Source: a candidate division FCPU426 bacterium
GTDB lineage: Bacteria; Oederibacteriota; Muellerivitia; Muellerivitales; Muellerivitaceae
DNA length: 64,000 bases
Assembly (NCBI GenBank): GCA_963796105.1
Contig: CAWCKJ010000004.1
Location: forward strand, 224,001-288,000
Direction: 5' to 3'
Under the pieces are notes generated by a model. It worked only from the letters and a program-made list of their open reading frames with translations. It was not told where the DNA came from and did not search any database. Positions 28,311 through 41,138 of this stretch are shown here, one piece after another (positions within the stretch are counted from its first letter, which is position 1; each line of letters opens with the position of its first letter). The translations under genes and the position numbers were made by a program.

Positions 28311-28316
28311 TGTACC

Positions 28317-28345
28317 GGCTCCCCGGATTCAACGATTTACGAACT
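28317..28345 (+). other. Left attachment junction (core + element arm)
   Basis: GGCTCCCCG + GATTCAACGATTTACGAACT. The arm is an imperfect reverse complement of GGTTCGCAAAAGCGTTTGAA at 36471-36490. Confidence 0.8.
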
Positions 28346-28436
28346 TTTCGCCTAGAATTCCCTAAATAAAATTAAACCAGGGCCGGATTCAACGATTTGC
28401 GAACCCTTGAACTCTTAATATTCAATGTTTAAAAAT

Positions 28437-28904
28437 CTAAATACCATCAAACATTTTACCGATTAAAAGATTAGCAAAAAAATACGCACCAATCAGGAAC
28501 AAAACAACACCCGCCTGCTTCCTTGCTATCTCATAATTACCTCTAAGCAAAAATAATAACATTCCGCAATAAGAAACAATTAATGCACTAAATAAATTGC
28601 GATATCTATTTAGTATTTCCGTGAGAGAAAAATGATCTGTATTAGCATAATCAAATAATTGTTCGCCACAGGTAAATGGATAAAGCCACACAACGAGGAG
28701 AATAAATGAAAGTAAAAGAACAACTTGTCCTGAAATAAAACGGAAATATCTTTTATTCTCGCAAAGCATGTAAATTCCCAAAAAAGGAAAACCATAAGGA
28801 ACAACGATAAAAGAAACCAGAAGAATTAATCCACTAATCACATTCCATAAAAATTTGAACACGTCAATTGTTTCATGAATAAATTTCATCGGGTTGAAAT
28901 CCAA
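28437..28904 (-). CDS. Hypothetical membrane protein (cargo)
   Basis: AT-rich ORF with about 4 hydrophobic segments. Confidence 0.6.
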   Translation of the reverse strand: MDFNPMKFIHETIDVFKFLWNVISGLILLVSFIVVPYGFPFLGIYMLCENKRYFRFISGQVVLLLSFILLVVWLYPFTCGEQLFDYANTDHFSLTEILNRYRNLFSALIVSYCGMLLFLLRGNYEIARKQAGVVLFLIGAYFFANLLIGKMFDGI

Positions 28905-28922
28905 TGCAGTTTTAATAAATTC

Positions 28923-29279
28923 CTATTGAATTAATCCAAAGGATCGATAAACAAAAAAACACTGATAACTGATCTTAAATATAAGAAACGCAAAAGCAAT
29001 AAATGTCACTATAAGAACAATCTTCCATTTTCTATTTGTTATAGATCGAAGGCCGAATGGTAATAAAATTGCACCAAGAGCCGGTACCCAATATGGATTC
29101 GTTTTATAGGCAATCCTAACAATAATGGGAACCCGGTTAAGTCTATCTTCACCTACACTGCCAAGCCCTTCAAATATCATTGGAAAAATAAACACAAAAT
29201 AAAAACATAAAAGAGCTGGAATAAAAAATATACTGATTACCATAATTATTTGAAAAAATTTTGATTTTTTTGAAATCAT
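28923..29279 (-). CDS. Hypothetical membrane protein (cargo)
   Basis: 118 aa with about 3 hydrophobic segments. Confidence 0.55.
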   Translation of the reverse strand: MISKKSKFFQIIMVISIFFIPALLCFYFVFIFPMIFEGLGSVGEDRLNRVPIIVRIAYKTNPYWVPALGAILLPFGLRSITNRKWKIVLIVTFIAFAFLIFKISYQCFFVYRSFGLIQ

Positions 29280-29331
29280 CTAAATTTTGTTTCTTCGCAA
29301 TGTCTCCCCATTCCATACGTTTTGCGAATTT

Positions 29332-29916
29332 TTAAATTCGTTGATATTTATCTATTTTATAAGCCATTATTGTTGTAACGATGTTACCGATTACCAATAT
29401 CAGCACAAATGCTAAAAACGAATGAATAATTTCTGCTTGTAAATAAACCATTATTACTAAAACTAAATAGGCCACTTCTAGGGTAACCATTTGTATTTCT
29501 GAGTATATATTTTTATCTTTTTCTAAAATATATATCCAAGGGATGAGCGCAACACAAGCAGACCAAAGAAGTCTTGGTATAAAAGAATGATCGGTTGCTG
29601 TTTTTGTGAAAATAATCAATATTGCAAAACACCATAATGTCGTTATAAGTATGCGATACAATGAACTAAGTGCTCCCCAAAAATAACCTTTTTTCTTATT
29701 ACCGCTTACAAAACTTTCAGATGCTAATGCAAGTAAAAATAATCCAGGCATCATTGGAATTGGAAGTAAAAATGCTGGTGCAGTAATTTCTAGAAAAAAT
29801 CCTATAGCTATTGCTCCCCATTCGCCCAAGATGGCCAACCATATGAGCGAAACAATACCACTTAAAATAGAAAAAATGGCCAATACAATACCTAAACCCG
29901 TAAGAAGTATTTTCAT
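29332..29916 (-). CDS. Hypothetical polytopic membrane protein (cargo)
   Basis: RBS AGGAG. About 6 hydrophobic segments. Confidence 0.7.
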   Translation of the reverse strand: MKILLTGLGIVLAIFSILSGIVSLIWLAILGEWGAIAIGFFLEITAPAFLLPIPMMPGLFLLALASESFVSGNKKKGYFWGALSSLYRILITTLWCFAILIIFTKTATDHSFIPRLLWSACVALIPWIYILEKDKNIYSEIQMVTLEVAYLVLVIMVYLQAEIIHSFLAFVLILVIGNIVTTIMAYKIDKYQRI

Positions 29917-29964
29917 AGCATCTCCTAAATCAAATCAGGGATAGACATAATTCGCTCCCGTGCC

Positions 29965-30417
29965 TTATTTGTATTTTTTTGGTTTATGACCGATTAAATG
30001 GACTTCTGATAAGTATGAATCGATATCATTTTCCTTACCGTAAATATCTTCGCGGATTGTCTTAACCACAGTACGCAATAATTCGTCATGTTTAATTGAC
30101 CATTCTTTTGATTCCCTTGGAATTTCAGTATTACTTTGACGAATGAAATTATGAAATTTCATCAACTCTTGAACGACAGAGGGAGCGGCAATGACGATTA
30201 AACTATTAAAACTTTCCGATAATCTTTTTTGTGCATCATCGTCATTATTATCAATCGCAACATCGCTCATAGATTTTATATACAATCGATAATATTCTTG
30301 TTTTATCTTTCTTTCTTCAGATTCTCGTTGTTGTTTTTTTGTTAGGTAATAGGTAATGAATGATCCCAAAATACCTACCAATGCAGTAATTGTGATTGTA
30401 ATAAATTGGGCATCCAT
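29965..30417 (-). CDS. Hypothetical protein with N-terminal TM helix (cargo)
   Basis: RBS AAGGA. Single TM segment followed by a charged helical domain. Confidence 0.7.
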   Translation of the reverse strand: MDAQFITITITALVGILGSFITYYLTKKQQRESEERKIKQEYYRLYIKSMSDVAIDNNDDDAQKRLSESFNSLIVIAAPSVVQELMKFHNFIRQSNTEIPRESKEWSIKHDELLRTVVKTIREDIYGKENDIDSYLSEVHLIGHKPKKYK

Positions 30418-30442
30418 ATGCTTTTCCTTTCCGGAAATAGGT

Positions 30443-31078
30443 CTAAGGTGAATTAAAAATATTAAATATATTTTTAATACAAACTACAAAAAGAGAATTA
30501 AAACCGATTAAAAAATACGATAAATACAAAAACCGCATGCAATCAACATTTTGATCTAGTTTAAGAAACAATGAAAATATCTTTCCATCTTTCGAACCCT
30601 TTAATTCTCTCGTGAAAAATTTCCATATTTTATTCGGAAATAATCTTTTTAACGGTGCATAAAAATCTAAAAATGTCATAAGACTTAATGCTTCTATAAT
30701 ACTTAGTGCTAGAAAAAACCACCCTTCATAAAACAAAGGTTTCCATTCAATAGGGTGTTTCCCTTGAAGGGAAGATACTTCCGCAAATGACATGGATAGT
30801 AGAAAAAGGGTTAATGTAATTAACCATTTAAAATAATCTGTCCAACTTTTACGAAAAGATTCGATTACCGATTTTGTTGGAATTTTAATTTTCAGTGGTT
30901 TAAATTTTGATTTGTGTTTATTTTTGTCCTTTTTAATCAAAATAAACCAAATCAGATCAACAATAACTATTTGCACAATAAGCCATTTAAAAATTTCTAA
31001 TGGTATTTTTAAAAAAGATAAAAGGAATATCCAAATCAAAAGGGAAACAAGGTATTTAACAAATTCTTTGAAATTCAT
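30443..31078 (-). CDS. Hypothetical membrane protein (cargo)
   Basis: 211 aa with several hydrophobic segments. Confidence 0.6.
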   Translation of the reverse strand: MNFKEFVKYLVSLLIWIFLLSFLKIPLEIFKWLIVQIVIVDLIWFILIKKDKNKHKSKFKPLKIKIPTKSVIESFRKSWTDYFKWLITLTLFLLSMSFAEVSSLQGKHPIEWKPLFYEGWFFLALSIIEALSLMTFLDFYAPLKRLFPNKIWKFFTRELKGSKDGKIFSLFLKLDQNVDCMRFLYLSYFLIGFNSLFVVCIKNIFNIFNSP

Positions 31079-31117
31079 TTAACTTCCCAGTTATAACCCG
31101 AATTAAAGTAGAAGAAA

Positions 31118-31882
31118 CTACACGGTTATTAATTTCGATAATTCTTTGTTTAAGAACAACATAAAATTTTTTAAGATTGGGACAGAACGGTAAAAATATT
31201 TTAAGTTTGTTTGCAAACGAACTCTTTTTTTATATCCCATAGTTTTCAAATACTTCTCGTCTTGAATACCGTGGTTATGAACTACTAAATTTCTGCGAAG
31301 TGATATCTCTTTAATTTTTTCCCAATCTTTAAATCCTGATTTGATATCTATTTTAAATTTGTTTTCAAGAAGCAATCCCAATCCAATAATGCCGCTATCT
31401 AAAGTATTTTTAATTTCTTTATCAACCATAGCAGAGATTATTTTTTCAATACTTCCAAGGTTTATTATTTCTTTATATAAAATTGGCTTGTCGTTTTTCA
31501 GGTAGGATGTTTTCAAAAATAAAACTTGTCGAAGTTGTAATTCAACAAAATTTTCAAATAAAATAACCAAATAAGTTAAAGCCATATTTGCCAAAAAATT
31601 CTTTTTCGTAAATTCACTAAGCGATTCCGCTAAAAATATTTTTACATTATCTGATTTTGGATTAAACTTTTTATTCTTTTCTACAACTCCGAAAATAGCT
31701 GCATTTTTTCTTAGCTCGGCCTTCTCCTTGAAGGAAAGATTGTCGAAAGTAACCGTATGTTTGCTTGAAATTAAAATTTCTGTATCTTTTACAAGAGATT
31801 CAAGTAAATCAATATTTGCCGAACTGTAATTTAAAAATGCTCGTAAGGCCTTAATACTATCTTTTTTTTTAACTATTTTCAT
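31118..31882 (-). CDS. Putative HEPN-domain protein
   Basis: Helical protein with LFENFV and a C-terminal RNLVVH (Rx4H) followed by NHG. Confidence 0.6.
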   Translation of the reverse strand: MKIVKKKDSIKALRAFLNYSSANIDLLESLVKDTEILISSKHTVTFDNLSFKEKAELRKNAAIFGVVEKNKKFNPKSDNVKIFLAESLSEFTKKNFLANMALTYLVILFENFVELQLRQVLFLKTSYLKNDKPILYKEIINLGSIEKIISAMVDKEIKNTLDSGIIGLGLLLENKFKIDIKSGFKDWEKIKEISLRRNLVVHNHGIQDEKYLKTMGYKKRVRLQTNLKYFYRSVPILKNFMLFLNKELSKLITV

Positions 31883-31997
31883 TTTGTCCTCAAAATATAT
31901 TGATTCAAGGGACTTATATAATTAACTTCCTTTTTTCTTTTTCCCTTATTTCTTGGGTTATACCGTTCACGACTCAATATTTTATTTGAATAGGAAG

Positions 31998-32573
31998 TCA
32001 AGTACCTAAATTCTTTTGACGTTCTATTAACTCTTTTTGATATTCAACGAAAGTTTGAAAGTCTTTAGGATCAACAGTCGGGGAAATTGGCTTATCTCGT
32101 TGTAGCTTTGTCTTTATAGTATTTATATTTTTTTTGATTACTTCCTTTAATTGATCGGGTGGGTCTCGAAATCGTCTTTTTGCTAATTCCCAATTTCTTT
32201 CAAATTCCTTTTTAAGGTCATCAGCATCTGACGTTCCGGGATAAGCTTTATCAAAATTTTTAACTACTTGTCCTTGCCATATATCCAACGTATCCCACAG
32301 CCAATATCCATAATCTTCTAGTTTGAAATTTAATAAAATTTTCGCATCATTTTCTAAACACACTTTAAATTGTTGGAGGGTAGAAAATTCTTTTTTGGTT
32401 TTGAAGAAAAAATAATGGCATACCATAATTAAACCGATAGCTATTCCAATAATTCCTATAGAATCAGATTGCGGTAGGTGTGTCAATCTTCCTACCCCTC
32501 CATAAATAAGCGCAAACGCAGAAACTAAATTCCAAGGATTTCGCATAGGAGGTATTATAAATAACAAACTCAT
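31998..32573 (-). CDS. Hypothetical protein, two N-terminal TM segments
   Basis: 191 aa ORF with a hydrophobic N-terminus and a charged C-terminus. Confidence 0.6.
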   Translation of the reverse strand: MSLLFIIPPMRNPWNLVSAFALIYGGVGRLTHLPQSDSIGIIGIAIGLIMVCHYFFFKTKKEFSTLQQFKVCLENDAKILLNFKLEDYGYWLWDTLDIWQGQVVKNFDKAYPGTSDADDLKKEFERNWELAKRRFRDPPDQLKEVIKKNINTIKTKLQRDKPISPTVDPKDFQTFVEYQKELIERQKNLGT

Positions 32574-32599
32574 TTGTGGAATTAACTATATAAGTTTCT

Positions 32600-32788
32600 T
32601 TATTCTAGGGTTTGGTCGGTTTTATCCTCAAAAATTATTTGTGCTTGAGTTCTTGAAGATAAAGAAACAGCTTTCAATCTATCTTTCAAAACTTCTCTTG
32701 AAATAATTTTGGCCAATATTCGAATGCCGGATTTTATACTCTCTTTTGATTCTTCATCAGATTCCATTTTAAACCTTAAGGTATTCAA
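32600..32788 (-). CDS. Small hypothetical protein
   Basis: 62 aa ORF overlapping the stop of the upstream gene. Confidence 0.4.
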   Translation of the reverse strand: MNTLRFKMESDEESKESIKSGIRILAKIISREVLKDRLKAVSLSSRTQAQIIFEDKTDQTLE

Positions 32789-33351
32789 TACAGGATAATT
32801 TGACTGCTCTCGAAACTTTTAGGCAATTTGCATGGGGCGTTGTGCATATAAATTTCGGTGCTATCTGCTGATTGAATAGAACTTAAATCTGTCATTGTTT
32901 GACATGTAATTGTAATTACCGCTGAGTTTGCAGAGCAGGGTAACGTATCCCCGCAATTAATCGTAAGGTTTGAAGAGTTTATAGAGCCTGAACAACTGGA
33001 AGGCCCTGCACAAGTTGTGGTAGGGGCGGAACATGCTGTGCCGGTTATGATGGAAACCGAAGAACTATTAAAACTTTGCGGTAAATGAGATGGAGCGGCG
33101 CAAGCAAAAATATCCGTACTATTAGCGGATTTAATTGAACTTAAATCCATTGGAGTTGAACAAGATAACGTGATTTCGGAGCTATTGGCCGATGAAGGAA
33201 GAGTAGCCCCACAAGGCAAGATAAACGAACTACTGTTTGCACTGGTTCCCCCCGTGGAAGGGGATGTAGCCGGTTTTGAAGTGCAAGACCAAACCAGCCA
33301 TGAGAAAACAGTAAGGCCTAATAAACCCAAAAACATTGTATTTTTTTTCAT
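32785..33351 (-). CDS. Cys/Ser-rich lipoprotein with internal duplication
   Basis: RBS GAGG and lipobox VWSC. Two copies of CGxTLPxSANSxxITxxCxTxxDLSSIxSAxSTxI...APxxLPxSFxSS. Confidence 0.7.
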   Translation of the reverse strand: MKKNTMFLGLLGLTVFSWLVWSCTSKPATSPSTGGTSANSSSFILPCGATLPSSANSSEITLSCSTPMDLSSIKSANSTDIFACAAPSHLPQSFNSSSVSIITGTACSAPTTTCAGPSSCSGSINSSNLTINCGDTLPCSANSAVITITCQTMTDLSSIQSADSTEIYMHNAPCKLPKSFESSQIILY

Positions 33352-33473
33352 AAACACACCTCTTTTAAAATTCAATCCGGACCAAAAACTTGTTTTGCCG
33401 TGGATTCAACTTATTTCACGACTTAATATATAGTTTATGTACTGAACTAGGAGTTTCAACTGTAATTTGTCCC

Positions 33474-33719
33474 ATGAAGGACAAATTCATCACCATTCAA
33501 TTGGGGAAAAATATTCGGGAATTAAGGCTTAAAAAGGGATTAACCCAAGAGCAATTGGCCGAATTAACCCAAATTCATTCGGTATATATGAGCAATATCG
33601 AGAACGGCTTACGAAATATTACTGTGATTAAAGCCTTTAAAATCGCTCAAGCGTTGGATTGCGACGTTTCGAAATTGTTCAAGGGGATTCCCCGTACACC
33701 TAAAAGCGCTTCAAAATAA
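33474..33719 (+). CDS. XRE-family HTH regulator
   Basis: LGKNIRELRLKKGLTQEQLAE...YMSNIENGLRN...IAQAL. Confidence 0.9.
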   Translation: MKDKFITIQLGKNIRELRLKKGLTQEQLAELTQIHSVYMSNIENGLRNITVIKAFKIAQALDCDVSKLFKGIPRTPKSASK

Positions 33720-33726
33720 ATTCCAC

Positions 33727-34160
33727 CAAACCCATAAACCCATTCTCAGAATCCATTCTTAGAATGCCATTCTTAGAATCCCAAACCCCTTGAGCAGGGT
33801 TTAAAAGCCATTATTTATGTGTTTATTAACCCATAAACCCATTCTTAAGAATCCATTCTTAAGAATCATTCTTAGAATGCCATTCTTAGAATCCACAAAC
33901 CCATTAGGCAGGGTATAAAAGCCATTATTTATGGGTTTTATTAACCCATAAACCCATTCTTAAGAATCCATTCTTAGAATCATTCTTAGAATCCATTCTC
34001 AGAATCAAAACCCATAACCCACAAACCCATTACCCATACCCATAAACCCTTTAGGTATGCCTAAAACCATGTTTTATGGGATATAACCCACCCCTAAACC
34101 CATACACACAAACCCATTACCCATAAACCCATAACCCATTTCCAAACCCATCGCCTTATG
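33727..34160. repeat. Nested repeat array: three ~110-120 bp units holding 11 ATTCT(T/C)(A)AGAAT palindromes plus AAACCCAT repeats
   Basis: Read directly. ATTCTTAAGAAT is a perfect palindrome. The spacer GCAGGGTWTAAAAGCCATTATTTATG occurs twice. Confidence 0.9.
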
Positions 34161-34280
34161 GGTTTTGTTTTCAATCTAAGAAACACTCTCAAAGACCAAT
34201 CCGGGGATTTTTTAATGGAAAAATCGAGGGCGGATTCAACGATTTGCGAACCTATTTTCAGGGGGTGTTTTTAGGTTTTC

Positions 34281-34457
34281 CTATTTCACTTTTTGCGGGG
34301 GAAGGGTAGCTTTGACGGTAGCCGGGTTTCGACGCATTGCCCCGGTCACCAGCAATTCTATCAACTGCTTGGAGAACTCATGGCCTTCTTCAGGGGCAAT
34401 CGGAACAAAGTTAATTTCCACGTAAAAAGGTCTTTTTTTATTATGCCCATTAGTCAT
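34281..34457 (-). CDS. Small protein divergent from the regulator-recombinase operon (possible directionality factor)
   Basis: 58 aa ORF MTNGH...VEINFVPI...LIELL. Function inferred from position only. Confidence 0.45.
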   Translation of the reverse strand: MTNGHNKKRPFYVEINFVPIAPEEGHEFSKQLIELLVTGAMRRNPATVKATLPPQKVK

Positions 34458-34537
34458 ATTCCGGAGTATAATCCGATTATGCCTTATGGTCAAGTATTCT
34501 GAAAAATAATTTCATCGTTTAAAAAAGGTAGGTGCTT

Positions 34538-35005
34538 ATGGCAATGACAGGTAAAAGGCTGGAGCCTCAAGTCTCTGAGGAGTTCGTCAAGCTATTTGAG
34601 GAACACCTGGAAAAGAACAAACTAACCTTGATGGAAGTGGCGGATAAGGTGGAAATGTCCCAAAGCTACCTTTCCAGGATTCTAAGCCGGGAAAGGGGCC
34701 TTCCATCGGATGAGAAAGTCCTGCAAATGGCAAAAGCCCTCAAGATCAATCCCCCTGAATCCCTCTTGATTGTGGCCGGAAGGATACCGGCCACTAAGGG
34801 GGAAACGGATTCAGCCAAGATTGACAAATGCATCGATAAAATCAACCAACTAGCCCAAGAATCCAAGGAAATCAAAGAGGCCGCCGAATCCAACGCCTTT
34901 ATAGCCAAAGTCCTGTTAGGCATTGCGGCACTTGCGGGGGTGATTCTTATAGCCATAGCGGCTATTACCCTAAAACGGAAAAAAGAGATAAAGAATGACG
35001 CCTGA
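34538..35005 (+). CDS. XRE-family HTH regulator with C-terminal TM helix
   Basis: LTLMEVADKVEMSQSYLSRILSRERGLPS HTH. C-terminal VLLGIAALAGVILIAIAAITL-KRKK. Overlaps the recombinase start. Confidence 0.8.
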   Translation: MAMTGKRLEPQVSEEFVKLFEEHLEKNKLTLMEVADKVEMSQSYLSRILSRERGLPSDEKVLQMAKALKINPPESLLIVAGRIPATKGETDSAKIDKCIDKINQLAQESKEIKEAAESNAFIAKVLLGIAALAGVILIAIAAITLKRKKEIKNDA

Positions 35006-36818
35006 AAAGGTTAAATGCGGCCTATACGTCAGGGTATCAAGCCAGAACCAATTAAGCCCGGAATATAACTCTCTGGCAAGCCAAAGGGAGAAATTAGAGG
35101 CCTACTGCAAGAGCCAGGAAGGCTTTGAAATCTACCGGGTTTATGAGGATGGGGCTTTTTCGGCTGACAGCATGGAAAGGCCGCAATTGCAAGCCATGTT
35201 GACCGATATTCGTTTTGGGAAAATCAACTGCGTTTTAGTTTACAAGATTGACCGGCTCACCCGTTCGGTTAAGGACTTTAATACCCTTCTGGAAATATTC
35301 GAAAAGTACAAGGTCAAATTCGTTTCAATCACCCAAAGCTTAGACACTACCAGCCCGTCAGGGCGCTTGATGCGAAATATCATTGTGGACTTCAGCCAAT
35401 ACGAAAGGGAGATGACTTCCGACCGCACCAAGGACAAGATGCACCAAAGGGCGGAAAAAGGAATGTGGAACGGGGGAGTTGTGCCTTTTGGGTACAAAAA
35501 CGAAAACAAGAAGCTTGTCATTCATCCCAACGAATCCCCCATAGTTCAATTCATGTTCCGTCAATTCTCACAAGAGCCTTCCCTTGCCAAGCTAAGGGAA
35601 AAACTAAGGCTTAGGGGATATATGAACCGTGCCGGGAAGGAATGGGACAAAACCGCAATCATGCATATTCTTAAAAATCCGGTTTATTGCGGGAAAATCC
35701 GTATTGGTGAACAAATCTATAAAGGGCTTCACGAATCAATAGTTGAGGAAGCCCTATTCTTGCGGATCGAGAGATTAACACCCGACCGCACACACCCCAA
35801 AACCAAAATTGAAAGGCCGTTTCTGTTAAAGGGGTTGATTAGATGTTCCTATTGCGGTTCCTACATGACGCCCCATTACACCTTGAAGCACAGGAAAGAC
35901 GGCTCAACCCATGCGGTTTGTTATTACCGATGCACCAAGACAACCCATTTCAATAATCAATCCTGCAAGATCAGGCACATCAACGCCGAATTTGCGGAAA
36001 ATTGGGTCATAAGTTCCTTAACCCAAGTTACCTACAATGACGTTTATTTAGAAACCACTATCGAGGAAATAAACAAGAACCTACTTGGAAAAACGAATGA
36101 TTTGGAAAAGGAAGTGGATAACTTCAAGAAGAGTTTAGAAGAAGTAGAAAGCAAGATAGACCGCTATGTGAAGGCAATAGGGGAAGGAACCACTACCGCT
36201 AAACTCATAGAAAAAGAAATCAAAGTCCTAACGGATGATAAAAGAAAACTGGAAATCCAGTATGAAGCGGCCCAAGTGGACTTTAACAGCCAAGCAATGG
36301 CCGCTTTCGACGTTCAATTGATAAAAGAGAGTTTGAAAAGTTTCCGTGACAGCTTTGGGGCTCTTACGACCGAGGAAAAGGCGCAAACTCTACAGAAGTT
36401 TCTCAAGACCATCTTGGTTTATCCTGAAAAGATGTCCCTTGATGTCTATGAATTACCCACCTTTTCCGTCGGTTCGCAAAAGCGTTTGAAATGGCTCCCC
36501 GTGCTGGACTCGAACCGGGCACAATCGTCTTTGATGCCAATATTTTACCGTTCTGGAATAAAAGGCGGGAATTCTTTGGAAAACCGCTTTTCACCACAGG
36601 GACTCAGAGACTCAGCCAAAATCCCAGTTTATTGGCATAAATTCGGCTTATGCCAGCAGGAGACCCGGCCTTTCCGACAGGCCTTTCGACAGTCAAGCTG
36701 TCCATTCCGACAGAAACCTGGCCTTTCCGACAGGGCGCCCGATAGGCAGACCGCCCATTCCGACAGGAGCCCGGCCTTTCCGACAGGGCGTCCTGGGACC
36801 TTGGAACTCTGGAACTAG
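34995..36818 (+). CDS. Large serine recombinase (integrase); last ~105 aa are read-through beyond the att core
   Basis: YVRVSS catalytic motif, RPQLQ, KIDRLTRS, VPFGY, LKNPVYCG, LKGLIRCSYCG and YYRC Zn ribbon, coiled coil. The frame crosses the core at WLP (36492-36500). Confidence 0.95.
   Translation: MTPEKVKCGLYVRVSSQNQLSPEYNSLASQREKLEAYCKSQEGFEIYRVYEDGAFSADSMERPQLQAMLTDIRFGKINCVLVYKIDRLTRSVKDFNTLLEIFEKYKVKFVSITQSLDTTSPSGRLMRNIIVDFSQYEREMTSDRTKDKMHQRAEKGMWNGGVVPFGYKNENKKLVIHPNESPIVQFMFRQFSQEPSLAKLREKLRLRGYMNRAGKEWDKTAIMHILKNPVYCGKIRIGEQIYKGLHESIVEEALFLRIERLTPDRTHPKTKIERPFLLKGLIRCSYCGSYMTPHYTLKHRKDGSTHAVCYYRCTKTTHFNNQSCKIRHINAEFAENWVISSLTQVTYNDVYLETTIEEINKNLLGKTNDLEKEVDNFKKSLEEVESKIDRYVKAIGEGTTTAKLIEKEIKVLTDDKRKLEIQYEAAQVDFNSQAMAAFDVQLIKESLKSFRDSFGALTTEEKAQTLQKFLKTILVYPEKMSLDVYELPTFSVGSQKRLKWLPVLDSNRAQSSLMPIFYRSGIKGGNSLENRFSPQGLRDSAKIPVYWHKFGLCQQETRPFRQAFRQSSCPFRQKPGLSDRAPDRQTAHSDRSPAFPTGRPGTLELWN
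36471..36518 (+). other. Right attachment junction; host side resembles a tRNA 3' end on the minus strand
   Basis: GGTTCGCAAAAGCGTTTGAAAT-GGCTCCCCG-TGCTGGACTCGAACC. Minus strand reads GGTTCGAGTCCAGCACGGGGAGCCA (T-loop + acceptor 3' strand + CCA). Confidence 0.75.
36660..36790. repeat. Short repeats of (GGCCT)TTCCGACAG
   Basis: About 6 copies of TT(C)CGACAG at irregular spacing. Confidence 0.8.
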
Positions 36819-37134
36819 CCTGGAACCACTGAAACTCGGGATTTCTGGAACTTTGGAACTTCTGGAACTGGCCTGGAACCACCAAATTCGGGATTCCTGG
36901 AACTCTGGAACTCTGGAACTTCTGGAACTGGCCTGGAACCACCAAATTCGGGATTCCTGGAACTCTGGAACTGTCATTGGCCACGAGCTTTAACCCCCTA
37001 GCTGGCCAAGCACTTTGACCCCACCTCTGGCCAGTCACTTTGACCCCCTGTCTGGCCACCGACTTTGACCCCCTTGCCAAGGGCCTCTCTAACCGTCATT
37101 CCTTTCTCTTTTCACTTCATGTGAGGAGAACGGC

Positions 37135-38691
37135 ATGACCCGACAAGGGAGGCAGAGCGACATGACGACTATTCGTGAGATTTTGAGGACTTACCAGGCC
37201 TTGGGCGGGTTCAAACCCACTGCCCGGGCCCTGGGATGCAATAAGCACACGGTCAAGCAATACGTGCGTTGGGCGAAAGAACATGGCTTTCTCCAAGGGG
37301 AACTTCCCCTGGAAAAGGATTTGGCGAAGGCTTGGGAAGACGGCGAAAAATCCACGCCCGTTCCCGCTCATGCCTTGGAGGCCCTCAAGGGAATCATCCA
37401 AGAATGGTTGAAGGAAGATTTCACCTTGATTCGCATCCAGGAGATGCTTCAAGAGCGGCACGGGTGGAAGGGGAGTTACTCGACCCTGAAGAGGTATACG
37501 GAGCCTTTTCGCAATGAGAAACCCGCCTACGTGAGGCTGGAGGTTGCGCCCGGCGAGGAGGCCCAAGTGGATTTCGGGCTTTTGGGCCGCTTGTGGGACG
37601 AGACGCGTGGCAAGCAAGCCAAGGCCTGGGTTTTCGTGATGACCCTTTCCCATTCCCGGCATATGTACGCCGAGATTGTATTCGCACAGGACGTGAGAAC
37701 CTGGATCGCCTGCCACCGCCGGGCTTTCGAGTTCTTCAATTCAGTCCCTAAAAAAATCGTAATCGATAACCTGAAAAGCGCCATCGTCAAGGCGGCCCTC
37801 TATGATCCCTTGGCCAACCGTACCTACGTGGAATGCGCCAACCATTACGGCTTCATCATCTCCCCTTGCCGCGTCGCCACTCCACGCCACAAGGGTAAAG
37901 TTGAACGCGGCGTGCCCTATGTCCGTAATTCCTTCTTCAAGGGTCGTTCCTTCCAGGGCCGCACCGATGCCAACCATCAACTCCGCGATTGGGTGATGAA
38001 CAAGGCAGGTTTACGGGATCATGGCACCACCCGGCTTCAACCCTTGGCCGTCTTCCAGAGCGTGGAACAGAAGGCCCTTTTGCCCCTGCCTACCGCGGCT
38101 TACCATCCAACTTTCTTCAAAGAAGCCACTCTGCACCCCGATTGCCACGTAGTCGTGGAAGGTTCCTATTACTCGGCTCCCTACCGTCTTCGGGGCCAAA
38201 AACTACTGGCCCAATTAACCGACACCACCGTTGATATATTTCTCAAACACGAATGCGTGGCTTCCCACGCCAAGGCCACACGCAAGGGAACCTGGCGCAC
38301 CAACCCGGGCCACTATCCCCCTGAAAAAGCGGTCTTCTTGGAACGAACCCCACAATGGTGCCTCAAACAGGCCCAGGCCATTGGACCTAATACCCATCAA
38401 TTAATCCAACTCCTGCTGGAACACTCCCACCCCCTGGACCACCTGCGCAAAGCCCAGGGCATTCTGCGCTTGAGGGAAAAGTACCTGCCTTCCCGTCTGG
38501 AGGCAGCCTGTCTAAGGGCCCTCCATTTCGGAAACTACACGTACCAATCCATCAAAAACATCCTTCAAAAGAACCTCGATCAAAACCCGTTGGACCCGCC
38601 GTCGGATCCTTCACTCAAACCCCAGTCGTCTTTCGATTTCGCCCGGCCCGCGGAGGATTTCCTCCGTGCCTTGGCTCTGGATAAAAATTGA
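37135..38691 (+). CDS. istA: IS21 transposase
   Basis: PGEEAQVDFG, LSHSR, IDNLKSAI, KGKVERGV DDE motifs, YSAP. Confidence 0.95.
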   Translation: MTRQGRQSDMTTIREILRTYQALGGFKPTARALGCNKHTVKQYVRWAKEHGFLQGELPLEKDLAKAWEDGEKSTPVPAHALEALKGIIQEWLKEDFTLIRIQEMLQERHGWKGSYSTLKRYTEPFRNEKPAYVRLEVAPGEEAQVDFGLLGRLWDETRGKQAKAWVFVMTLSHSRHMYAEIVFAQDVRTWIACHRRAFEFFNSVPKKIVIDNLKSAIVKAALYDPLANRTYVECANHYGFIISPCRVATPRHKGKVERGVPYVRNSFFKGRSFQGRTDANHQLRDWVMNKAGLRDHGTTRLQPLAVFQSVEQKALLPLPTAAYHPTFFKEATLHPDCHVVVEGSYYSAPYRLRGQKLLAQLTDTTVDIFLKHECVASHAKATRKGTWRTNPGHYPPEKAVFLERTPQWCLKQAQAIGPNTHQLIQLLLEHSHPLDHLRKAQGILRLREKYLPSRLEAACLRALHFGNYTYQSIKNILQKNLDQNPLDPPSDPSLKPQSSFDFARPAEDFLRALALDKN

Positions 38692-38704
38692 GGAGGAAAC
38701 ATAT

Positions 38705-39484
38705 ATGGAAAATAAACATCAGTTGGAGCCGCACCTGAGAAGGTTAAAACTCGCAGGAATGTTGGAGACGCTGGAAATCCGAAACCAGCAGGCCATTGAA
38801 TCCCAGATCGGTTATATGGATTTCCTGGGCCAGTTGCTGTTGGATGAGCTGGAGCGCCGCCAAGTGGGCCAACTCCAAAGAAGGCTGAAAAAGGCGGGCT
38901 TCTCAACCCATATGACTCTAACGGGGTTCGATTTCGCCTTCAACCCGGCCATCAACCGGCAACAAATCCTGGATTTGGGTACTTGTTCTTTCGTGGAGCG
39001 AAAAGAGAACCTATTTTTCATCGGTCCCTCAGGTGTGGGCAAAACCCATTTGGCCTGCGCTTTGGCCCATGAAGTCTGCCGCAAGGGTTATGAGGTACTC
39101 TTTATCAAGACCTCGCATGCGGCCCAACGATTAGCGGCCTCGCGCGGGGACGGTACCTGGGAAAACCGATTCGCATCCTTCCTGAAACCCGACCTCTTGA
39201 TCCTGGACGACTGGGGTCTCAAGCCCTTCGACACCAAGGTCGCCGAGGATTTTTACGACATCATCTGTGAGCGTTATGAAAAGGGCTCCTTGATTTTTAC
39301 CACCAACCGCAGTCTGCGGGAGTGGCCGGAGCTTTTCGGCGACGCCCTCCTAGCCTCGGCTGCCATGGACCGCCTGGTCCACCATGCCACTGCCGTCGTC
39401 ATTCAGGGCCCTTCCTTTCGGACCCGTTCCATGCGCGAAGAAATGAAAAAAGAACACAGCAGGGAAAAAGAGGCAAAACTATGA
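38705..39484 (+). CDS. istB: IS21 helper ATPase
   Basis: GPSGVGKTHLA Walker A, LLILDDWG Walker B, TTN, AMDRLVHHA, GPSFR. RBS GAGGAGG. Confidence 0.95.
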   Translation: MENKHQLEPHLRRLKLAGMLETLEIRNQQAIESQIGYMDFLGQLLLDELERRQVGQLQRRLKKAGFSTHMTLTGFDFAFNPAINRQQILDLGTCSFVERKENLFFIGPSGVGKTHLACALAHEVCRKGYEVLFIKTSHAAQRLAASRGDGTWENRFASFLKPDLLILDDWGLKPFDTKVAEDFYDIICERYEKGSLIFTTNRSLREWPELFGDALLASAAMDRLVHHATAVVIQGPSFRTRSMREEMKKEHSREKEAKL

Positions 39485-40154
39485 GAAACCCATCGTTCGA
39501 TGCTGTCTTATTCGTGCAATCTTGCGCCTATTGGTTACGGGATTTGCGCGGGACTTCGTATCATCCAATGTTGGGGAAGCAAAACGCATCTTGTGAAAGG
39601 AGTTTGATGGGTCTAAATTAATCTAAAAAAAAGGCCCCGCAAGGCAGGGGTCGAAGTCCCCGAAACAGGCACCCCTCGAAGTGCCCAAAAGAGGGGGGGC
39701 AAAGTAGGCGGCCAGGGGGGTCAAAGTGACTGGCCAGTGACAGGAACTTCTGGAACTAGCCTGGAACCACCAAATTCGGGATTCCTGGAACTTCTGGAAC
39801 TGGCCTAGAACCACCAAATTCGGGATTCCTGGAACTCTGGAACTTCTGGAACTGGCCTGGAACCACCAAATTCGGGATTCCTGGAACTCTGGAACTTCTG
39901 GAACTGGCTTGGAACCACCAAATTCGGGATTCCTGGAACTCTGGAACTTCTGGAACTGGCCTAGAACCACCAAATTCGGGATTCCTGGAACTCTGGAACT
40001 GGCCTGGAACCACCAAATTCGGGATTCCTGGAACTCTGGAACTTCTGGAACTGGCCTGGAACCATTGGAACTCGAGAATCCGGGAACCTTGGAACTCTGG
40101 AACTGGCAGGGAACCACGGGAACTCGGGAACTGGCCTCTTGGACAGCTTTTTCC

Positions 40155-41138
40155 ATGCTTCTGTATTAAGTGACCCTTGAAATAAAGGAATACATAGGTA
40201 TACTGTCCGCTACGGGAGGTGGTACATGAGCTACCAGCGGATGAAAAGCATTAAAATTCTGAGGAAAATCCACACGGAAGAAGAAGCCCGCCAATGGGTG
40301 TGGAGATGCCGTTTCGGCGGGAAAGACTTTGTTTGTCCCCAATGTGAGGGCGAAAGCTTCTGGCAACACCAGGCCAAGCCTGAAGTGAGGGAATGTGACT
40401 ATTGCCGGAAACGTCTTCGGCTTCGCGCCGGGACGATTTTTGAAAGCTCCAAGCTGCCTCTTTTAACCTGGGTCAGGGCCATCAGTTTGATGATGCAGGG
40501 CAAACGGGGTATTTCGGCCCTGGAACTGAAGCGGCATTTAAATCTTTCGGATCATTCGGCATGGCTTCTATTGCATAAGATCCGGGAAGGTCTTAGGCAA
40601 AAGGACGAAAGCTATACTCTAAAGGGCGTCATTGAGTTGGATGGGGCGGTTTTTGGGAAAAAGGCCAAGGAAAACCAAGTGGAAGTCTTGGTGGCGGTGG
40701 AAAGCAAGGAATGGGTGGATGAGAATGGTTGCAAGAAGGAAAAAGCGGGTTTTGCCAAGGTGAAGGTAGCTATGGAAACCAAGTGGGAGAGCCAGGAATT
40801 CGTGAATCAGACTATGGAAAAAGGCTCTTTCCTCAACACAGATGCTTCGCCAGCCTTGCGTGAACTCAAAGGAGTGGAGGCAGACTACCGGGTGATGGCC
40901 AATGACCCGAAAGAGTTGGAAAGTTGGTTGCCCTGGGTACACCGGTTCATTTCCAACGCCAAGGCCTGGATCATTGGAACTCATCATGGCGTTGATGCTA
41001 AGTATTTAGGCCGGTATCTAAGTGAATATGCCTATCGGTTCAACCGTCGTCATGATCCCGATTCCTTATTTCACCGTGCTTTGACCGCATGTGCCTTAGC
41101 AAAACCCATTACAGCACGGTCACTTTGTGCATAAGCAT
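40155..41138 (+). mobile_element. IS1595-family insertion sequence
   Basis: Imperfect terminal inverted repeats ATGCTTCTGTATTAAGTGACC / GGTCACTTTGTGCATAAGCAT. Flanking direct repeat AGCTTTTTCC (40145-40154, 41139-41148). Confidence 0.88.
40226..41134 (+). CDS. IS1595-family transposase
   Basis: Zn ribbon CPQC...CDYC, AGTIFESSKLPL, IELDG, NTD, GTHHGV...YLSEYAYRFNRR. Confidence 0.92.
   Translation: MSYQRMKSIKILRKIHTEEEARQWVWRCRFGGKDFVCPQCEGESFWQHQAKPEVRECDYCRKRLRLRAGTIFESSKLPLLTWVRAISLMMQGKRGISALELKRHLNLSDHSAWLLLHKIREGLRQKDESYTLKGVIELDGAVFGKKAKENQVEVLVAVESKEWVDENGCKKEKAGFAKVKVAMETKWESQEFVNQTMEKGSFLNTDASPALRELKGVEADYRVMANDPKELESWLPWVHRFISNAKAWIIGTHHGVDAKYLGRYLSEYAYRFNRRHDPDSLFHRALTACALAKPITARSLCA

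Follow-up and report, generated by a model that had tools for sequence, protein, structure and literature searches.

What does an integrase gain from an attachment site placed inside its own gene? The question is raised by a large serine recombinase gene (34995–36818, plus strand) in a 64,000-nucleotide stretch of DNA from a candidate division FCPU426 bacterium, the whole of which we call the window. The gene runs across the right end of an AT-rich island of ~8.2 kb (28317–36501; G+C content 0.359, against 0.578 in the left flank and 0.522 in the right), and the same core, GGCTCCCCG, stands at both island ends, at 28317–28325 and again at 36493–36501. The recombinase frame crosses the right core at W500-L501-P502, where the conserved body of the protein ends, and as integrated it reads on to 607 amino acids. 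When the two ends were joined by script, the frame instead continued to a stop at 28367–28369, giving a recombinase of 516 amino acids. The initial annotation of this DNA had proposed such an arrangement, with the element's attachment site (attP) inside the 3′ end of the gene, inverted arms around the core and a different carboxy-terminus in the circular state; all of this was borne out, down to each of its numbers. We consider it slightly better than an even bet that the island belongs to a family that targets the tRNA-Asn 3′ end, carries attP in the last codons of its integrase, and loses on insertion a carboxy-terminal tail likely needed for efficient integration.

The core alone is a weak signal: the 9-mer occurs 5 times in the window against 1.23 expected, and 1 of 100 shuffles reached 5. 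Combined with the arm motif at +24, it has a single match in the window (28316); the arm 19-mer is present 3 times, where 0.03 copies are expected. One copy is the P′ arm (28326–28345, plus strand), whose outer motif CGAAC at 28340–28344 is inverted relative to the arm inside the integrase gene. The other two lack a core; one (28386–28405, plus strand), likely a relic left end, has the same offset in G001, a genome of the same genus, and the other (34233–34252, plus strand), 755 bp upstream of the integrase, is conserved there. No coreless arm copy was found within 3 kb of the integrase in 45 other loci (1 of 46 overall). The left boundary was confirmed independently by contig C57 of G001, which has the same left end and the same integrase module (93.8% identity over 33725–36583; integrase 95% identical, with an internal stop) but other cargo and another flank. 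Identity to this contig breaks at the left core (28317–28325, plus strand), the junction of host half and element half, and the flank is unrelated up to that point. The window island (28316–36492) and this G001 island (L021 1080–9253) carry unrelated cargo and are of near-equal length, 8176 and 8173 bp, either by chance or through a size constraint.

The window enzyme is a large serine integrase. Its frame is intact, and the catalytic and zinc residues are kept: an N-terminal serine catalytic domain (PF00239, E 4.9e-37) in which Y11, V14 and S15 are invariant across 45 sequences (Y-x-R-x-S catalytic motif), and matches to PF07508 (recombinase) and PF13408 (zinc ribbon) with C284, C287, C313 and C324 invariant. 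An AlphaFold model of a natural tailed homologue, L163, contains long helices consistent with an inserted coiled coil, and the top matches of a fold search were serine integrase complexes; a complex predicted for the integrase carboxy-terminal part and its cognate tail scored 0.05. Catalytic, recombinase and zinc-ribbon domains, a coiled coil and a short core are likewise found in the LI/A118, SPbeta, Bxb1 and phiC31 systems, as described in the portions available of PMC3783163 and PMC11722253. Those phage integrases are controlled by a separate factor, no attP inside the gene is described in these portions, and their best matches are about 32% identical to the window enzyme. We found no close relatives in phages or plasmids (best 32–37% identity), and the enzyme falls outside the SCCmec Ccr group, scoring 214.9 bits against the CcrB NCBIfam cut-off of 900.

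The sequence beyond the right arm identified the target. Positions 36492–36516 (minus strand), the B′ half-site, are a tRNA-Asn 3′ fragment from T-loop to CCA, read antisense by the integrase frame and identical at 23 of 25 positions to the genome's only called tRNA-Asn, which lies 1 Mb away and is unoccupied. The window island therefore sits in a decayed 25-nucleotide fragment rather than a gene, and the tRNA scan called no whole tRNA gene in the window. A decayed tail-like module follows (36517–36583, plus strand), with look-alikes elsewhere in the same genome and in G001. The statement in the initial annotation that the integrated tail reads into flanking repeats thus holds further on, but not for its first 25 nucleotides. 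A tRNA-Gln 14 kb past the window end was considered as the island's far boundary and rejected, because it differs at its 3′ end and is accompanied by a tyrosine-type integrase gene of its own.

A homologue search found 1163 proteins; the 120 listed comprised 102 with a DSN-type tail, 10 with a very short tRNA-type tail, 4 with an attP-type tail and 4 others. Scanning genome contigs with the single protein gave no relative; an alignment-based scan found 168 loci, of which 74 extended to the carboxy-terminus with an identity of 45% or more. Eight without the Trp at the site were dropped, and 58 of the remaining 66 were non-duplicate: 34 at a whole tRNA-Asn, 4 at a whole tRNA-Gln, 16 at a tRNA 3′ piece, 1 attP-like and 3 other. 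At the 34 whole tRNA-Asn loci the tails have 4–13 residues counted from the Trp, or 1–10 after WLP. The closest relative at an intact tRNA-Asn, from a genome of the same family, has an integrase 65% identical that runs into the tRNA. The integrated G001 integrase has 35 residues past WLP, different from the 105 in the window. Because relatives carry 1–10 such residues and G001 35, the 105-residue tail is accidental read-through across the tRNA fragment, the decayed module and repeats, and the suggestion that the 607-residue form is a designed second isoform is not supported. The integrated tail is set by the tRNA and the flank. WLPGLDSN followed by a stop, considered as the circular form, was rejected; it is the tRNA-Asn T-stem read antisense.

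The two half-sites suggest how the target is recognized. The P arm inside the integrase gene (36471–36491, plus strand; the GSQKRLK codons) contains GTTCG, a motif that all 52 distinct homologous arms share without change, even at third codon positions, and that is therefore constrained as DNA. Its mirror motif, CGAAC, lies at +24 in left ends (P′); in the tRNA half the T-loop supplies it, at +19. The outer motif is thus 5 bp nearer the centre in the tRNA half than in attP, fitting the rule that a 5-bp shift of this motif distinguishes attB from attP in serine integrases; a shift of 4–5 bp towards the centre in attB is a feature of the LI/A118, SPbeta, Bxb1 and phiC31 systems, with 4 bp in SPbeta (available portions of PMC3783163 and PMC11722253). 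The host-side half-site has no outer motif, and host-side halves are mutually unrelated across sites, a feature that would account for islands lodged in no more than a piece of tRNA. The symmetry axis falls on the T of GGCTC within the right core (36493–36501, plus strand), which places the probable cut at CT or TC (tRNA positions 71–73), the top of the acceptor stem.

If the integrated tail is dictated by the flank, what of the tail left behind at the other end? The left end of the island holds a start-less frame of 17 codons (28316–28369, plus strand; RLPGFNDLRTFRLEFPK followed by a stop), an orphaned integrase tail that the gene can read in frame only once the ends are joined. Left ends of relatives, read in the integrase frame, give W-L-P-x-L-(Y/D)-D-L-R-T-(L/F/I)-R-F-E-(F/V). 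Core-plus-arm left ends were found in 12 of 32 homologue-bearing genomes (20 matches, against 4 for a reversed-pattern control), and where left end and integrase were on one contig, matched by contig number and coordinates, the end lay 9–17 kb upstream of the integrase. Core variants agree between both ends in L049 and L057. A strict left-end search within 10 kb of the 66 homologous loci gave 1 weak match; the motif-based pattern found ends mostly further away. The pattern matched in 3 of 99 genomes of the same phylum and gave 0 matches in viral contigs; no family left end was found with the pattern used in Nitrospira-like genomes. A stricter pattern gave 1 match in 401 genomes of one phylum, which was not used, and a search for further natural tailed proteins returned 3 matches, all tRNA-tailed.

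Since the search pattern stopped at the Thr codon, codons 11–15, which lie past the arm, provide an independent view of selection. We assembled 22 ends (16 of the 20 pattern matches, 4 being dropped as chance after inspection, and 6 other ends), leaving out two relic ends of the window's own genome. Codons 11–15 of this set have a ratio of nonsynonymous to synonymous differences (pN/pS) of 0.27 and no stop in 22 ends, with second codon positions 0.91–1.0 conserved and third positions about 0.5. In the other two forward frames the ratio was 0.94 (12 stops) and 2.67 (16 stops), in the mirror reverse frame it was 0.37 (3 stops), and codons 17–22, further on, gave 0.85. For 10 ends picked by position, pN/pS was 0.23; with all 28 matches kept except one unpublished, it was 0.45 with 1 stop. 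In each of the three sets 0 of 400 column shuffles reached the observed value, a count that is a signature and not a probability, because the sequences are related. The tail Arg is encoded by both CGN and AGR, and the three changes between the window and G001 in codons 2–17 are all synonymous. These patterns argue that the orphan tail is, across relatives, under protein-level purifying selection beyond the DNA arm. The excised circle would thus encode an enzyme with a conserved 14-residue tail absent from the inserted copy, and in this the different circular carboxy-terminus foreseen by the initial annotation gains weight.

A tail of this kind can also be restored without excision. On contig C57 of G001, a second serine recombinase gene to the left of the core reads through it into the tail and ends WLPGFNDLRTFRLEFPKYF; tandem arrays can therefore restore a tailed enzyme, the upstream recombinase reading into the next island's left end. 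That recombinase (L021 9–1139) is distantly related and gains its tail while integrated.

Parts of this layout have precedents. In Dehalococcoides ssrA islands the 3′ end of dsiB always overlaps the att site in tmRNA, and McMurdie et al. (2011, PMC3146451) propose that DsiB may reach full function only in the circular form or where another island lies downstream of it. To judge from the portions of that paper available, our family resembles DsiB in being a serine recombinase of ~500 amino acids whose 3′ end lies over the att site and runs antisense into a stable-RNA gene, and in occurring in tandem islands; the comparison is one of layout. The target differs, being tmRNA there and tRNA-Asn or tRNA-Gln in 38 of 58 loci here (none was called tmRNA, in a scan for tRNAs only); a six-gene module with a second recombinase, DsiA, is required there and absent here; and the DsiB tail is called divergent in these portions, which show no selection on an orphan tail. 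The parts of the Islander paper available (2015, PMC4383910) give Mx8 and SSV as examples of integrases that span attP and state that serine integrases were not known at tRNA genes. Mx8 IntP and the SSV type also share with our family an attP within the integrase gene, a tRNA target and an enzyme altered or split by integration (available parts of PMC4383910 and PMC5861418), but they are tyrosine recombinases, alike in layout only. An exception to the Islander statement is Ralstonia phiRSM, whose serine recombinase uses the CCA end of a tRNA gene as its integration site; unlike ours it is of the small resolvase/invertase type, its target is tRNA-Ser and its attP lies between ORF14 and ORF15 (PMC3816273, available part). 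In phage BPs integration swaps a protein carboxy-terminus as a regulatory switch, but there the protein is the repressor rather than the integrase and the lost tail is an ssrA-like tag (PMC4557955, available part). The layout and the hypothesis are already in print, for DsiB at tmRNA and for Mx8; what our analysis adds is a clade at tRNA-Asn, selection on the tail and the proposed use of the T-loop as attB motif. The main texts searched contain no account of a large serine integrase that targets tRNA-Asn and carries attP within its gene, though the TIGER/Islander tables may list such islands. The word tRNA is absent from a large survey of large serine recombinases (preprint 10.1101/2021.11.05.467528), and the clade is undescribed in the text available of PMC13626063, PMC12884075, PMC10654092 and PMC5861418, a figure of PMC13626063 that sorts sites by target lying outside our scope.

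We propose the following cycle. The circle would make the tailed enzyme and insert at the 3′ end of tRNA-Asn, the integrase reading the T-loop sequence as the attB outer motif and cutting at the top of the acceptor stem, so that the element would need to restore only the last tRNA bases. Insertion would strand the tail at the far end and leave an enzyme ending in tRNA-antisense residues. The tail, with its alternating hydrophobics and predicted beta-strand, would complete the fully active enzyme. The tailless chromosomal enzyme would be weaker, or would need the small divergent protein described below to excise, thus stabilizing the insertion as in Mx8, whose altered enzyme is reportedly less active after integration. 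Because the tail is under selection and yet is produced by circles or tandem junctions alone, it would do its work in the circle or tandem state, and its loss is likely a built-in damping of the enzyme once inserted.

Several points weigh against this proposal. The genus consists of two genomes, and we saw no empty site in either: the G001 place orthologous to the window island is itself occupied, with the same left junction followed by a different 1.7-kb insert without integrase, so the empty site is not observable. No circle or junction read was seen. The arms are one base off perfect symmetry; the core variants of the two ends disagree in L047/L060, L055 and L169; and many of the related sequences in the selection test come from Acidobacteriota. 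In the L163 model the tail (residues 486–520) has pLDDT <50, and a strand at 510–515 is not reliable. The tailless integrase cannot be dead if islands still move, since it is the only form available for excision. Finally, the tail, which is also expressed in tandem arrays such as G001 C57, could be selected for a role other than catalysis.

Such a role might be direction. The tail could act in cis as a switch, packing on the zinc-ribbon domain at the place that a directionality factor would occupy or steering the coiled coil, with the tailed enzyme locked to integration and the tailless one serving as excisase. We regard this as doubtful, though not fanciful: the tail is under selection, it directly follows the zinc-ribbon domain, where the SPbeta factor binds (available portion of PMC11722253), and only the tailless form exists in the integrated state; yet the conserved small gene upstream might encode an ordinary factor, directionality is already accounted for by the usual 5-bp geometry, and the tail finds no confident place in the model. 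We hold to be just as doubtful the broader picture of a widespread tRNA-targeting clade with a recombination-swapped directionality peptide that binds the zinc ribbon in cis and the universal T-loop as attB motif. The opposite effect is improbable: a tail that destabilizes or inhibits the circle-encoded enzyme, as degradation tag or partner site, so that insertion switches the integrase on. Its hydrophobic character under selection would suit that role and the BPs repressor sets a precedent (PMC4557955, available part), but the conserved part is internal, and tails vary both in length (17 to 30 or more codons) and in their final residues, which speaks against a terminal degradation tag.

It is also conceivable, if still less probable, that the swap has no function, compact layout forcing the overlap and the left ends being conserved because the integrase or some other protein binds them as DNA. 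A trivial explanation of this sort is raised for DsiB by McMurdie et al. (PMC3146451, available part), and integrated tails tolerate 1–39 residues after WLP. Conservation past the arm nevertheless follows codon positions, with synonymous saturation and no stops, and it extends beyond a half-site of about 25 bp (PMC3783163, available portion). The window copy itself might be an immobile relic in a pseudo-site, its 9-bp match not a working boundary. The decayed 25-nucleotide target, the lack of a replication gene, the internal stop in the G001 integrase and an arm variant (A at 28339 in the window, where 21 of 22 left ends have G), which also weighs against our proposal, would fit such a relic. 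With the integrase frame intact, catalytic and zinc residues present, the boundary confirmed by G001 and the T-loop motif kept at +19, we consider this very unlikely.

Should the tail set activity or direction, serine integrases would have a mode of control that recombination itself sets, and the question that the 2011 DsiB study left open could be tested by a 14-residue swap. Databases hold almost only the tailless form (112 of the 120 listed homologues, of 1163), so that mining annotated genes for tools would clone the wrong carboxy-terminus. Integrases that recognize and restore the conserved tRNA-Asn 3′ end could serve as gene-preserving tools for insertion in a broad range of hosts, and islands of this family would be missed by finders built on the assumption that integrases at tRNA genes are of the tyrosine type.

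The remainder of the island holds its regulators and cargo. An Xre helix-turn-helix (HTH) repressor-like gene (34532–35005, plus strand), whose stop overlaps the integrase start, has homologues upstream of the integrase in most loci. Divergent from it is an open reading frame (ORF) of 58 amino acids (34281–34457, minus strand), by its position a candidate directionality factor or Cro-like protein; it is 90% identical in G001 and 42–47% in 6 homologous loci, and was assigned to no family. Further left lie low-complexity direct-repeat arrays common to G001 (33722–34150), an Xre-type HTH protein of 80 amino acids (33477–33719, plus strand) and nine cargo ORFs of 118–254 amino acids (28437–33351, minus strand), several of them hydrophobic, without Pfam match and different in G001. 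The 254-residue protein (31118–31882, minus strand) is HEPN-like as a lead only (RiboL-PSP-HEPN cluster 0.92, 172 of 256 features), carries what we take to be an RNxxxH-type motif and had no PADLOC match; it is a possible defence ribonuclease. A promoter and terminator scan gave chance-level results. Relatives share the repressor-like HTH gene and the divergent gene of about 60 amino acids, and most also have replication-like ORFs and a protein with what we presume is an HExxH-type motif. The window island has neither of the latter and is, from its gene content, probably non-autonomous. In Nitrospira-like loci (L050, L056, L058, L061–L063 and others; 16 of 57 loci) a 248-amino-acid ORF lies about 1.5–2.2 kb upstream of the integrase; we take its motif to be of HxH type, and it is possibly a rolling-circle replication protein.

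Other elements of similar design were seen in the genome that contains the window. A second island of ~10 kb (C6:129528–139557) lies at tRNA-Gln(CTG), with a distant serine recombinase ending WLGD and a left-end tail WLAFMDTFRTFLIQGISA. At C3:817854 there is a relic left end (WLPVVDKFRTPIFVD followed by a stop); the ORFs in the 17 kb that follow include no recombinase. At C4:301072–302346 a 424-amino-acid integrase-like gene, tyrosine type by appearance, reads into an antisense tRNA-Gln(TTG) in an Mx8-like layout. Dispersed modules in which a tail-like frame (WRTIAFEIP in G001) comes after a tRNA-Asn 3′ fragment include 36492–36583 of the window and occur at C3:106692(-), C4:675192(-), C2:259674(-) and 259740(-), and C11:80027(+) of the same genome and at C57:9253 and C27:279844 of G001. 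They resemble attB′/P′ hybrids and may represent preformed docking sites or the left ends of an older type of element. Low-complexity repeat arrays cluster beside elements and modules, in the window (33722–34150 and 36660–36790), on C27 and C57 of G001 and on C3 of the same genome. Beyond the island, an IS21-family insertion sequence (istA, istB and repeated ends; 36978–39737) lies inside a 52-nucleotide repeat array (36786–40139), and an IS1595-family transposase gene adjoins at 40226–41134.

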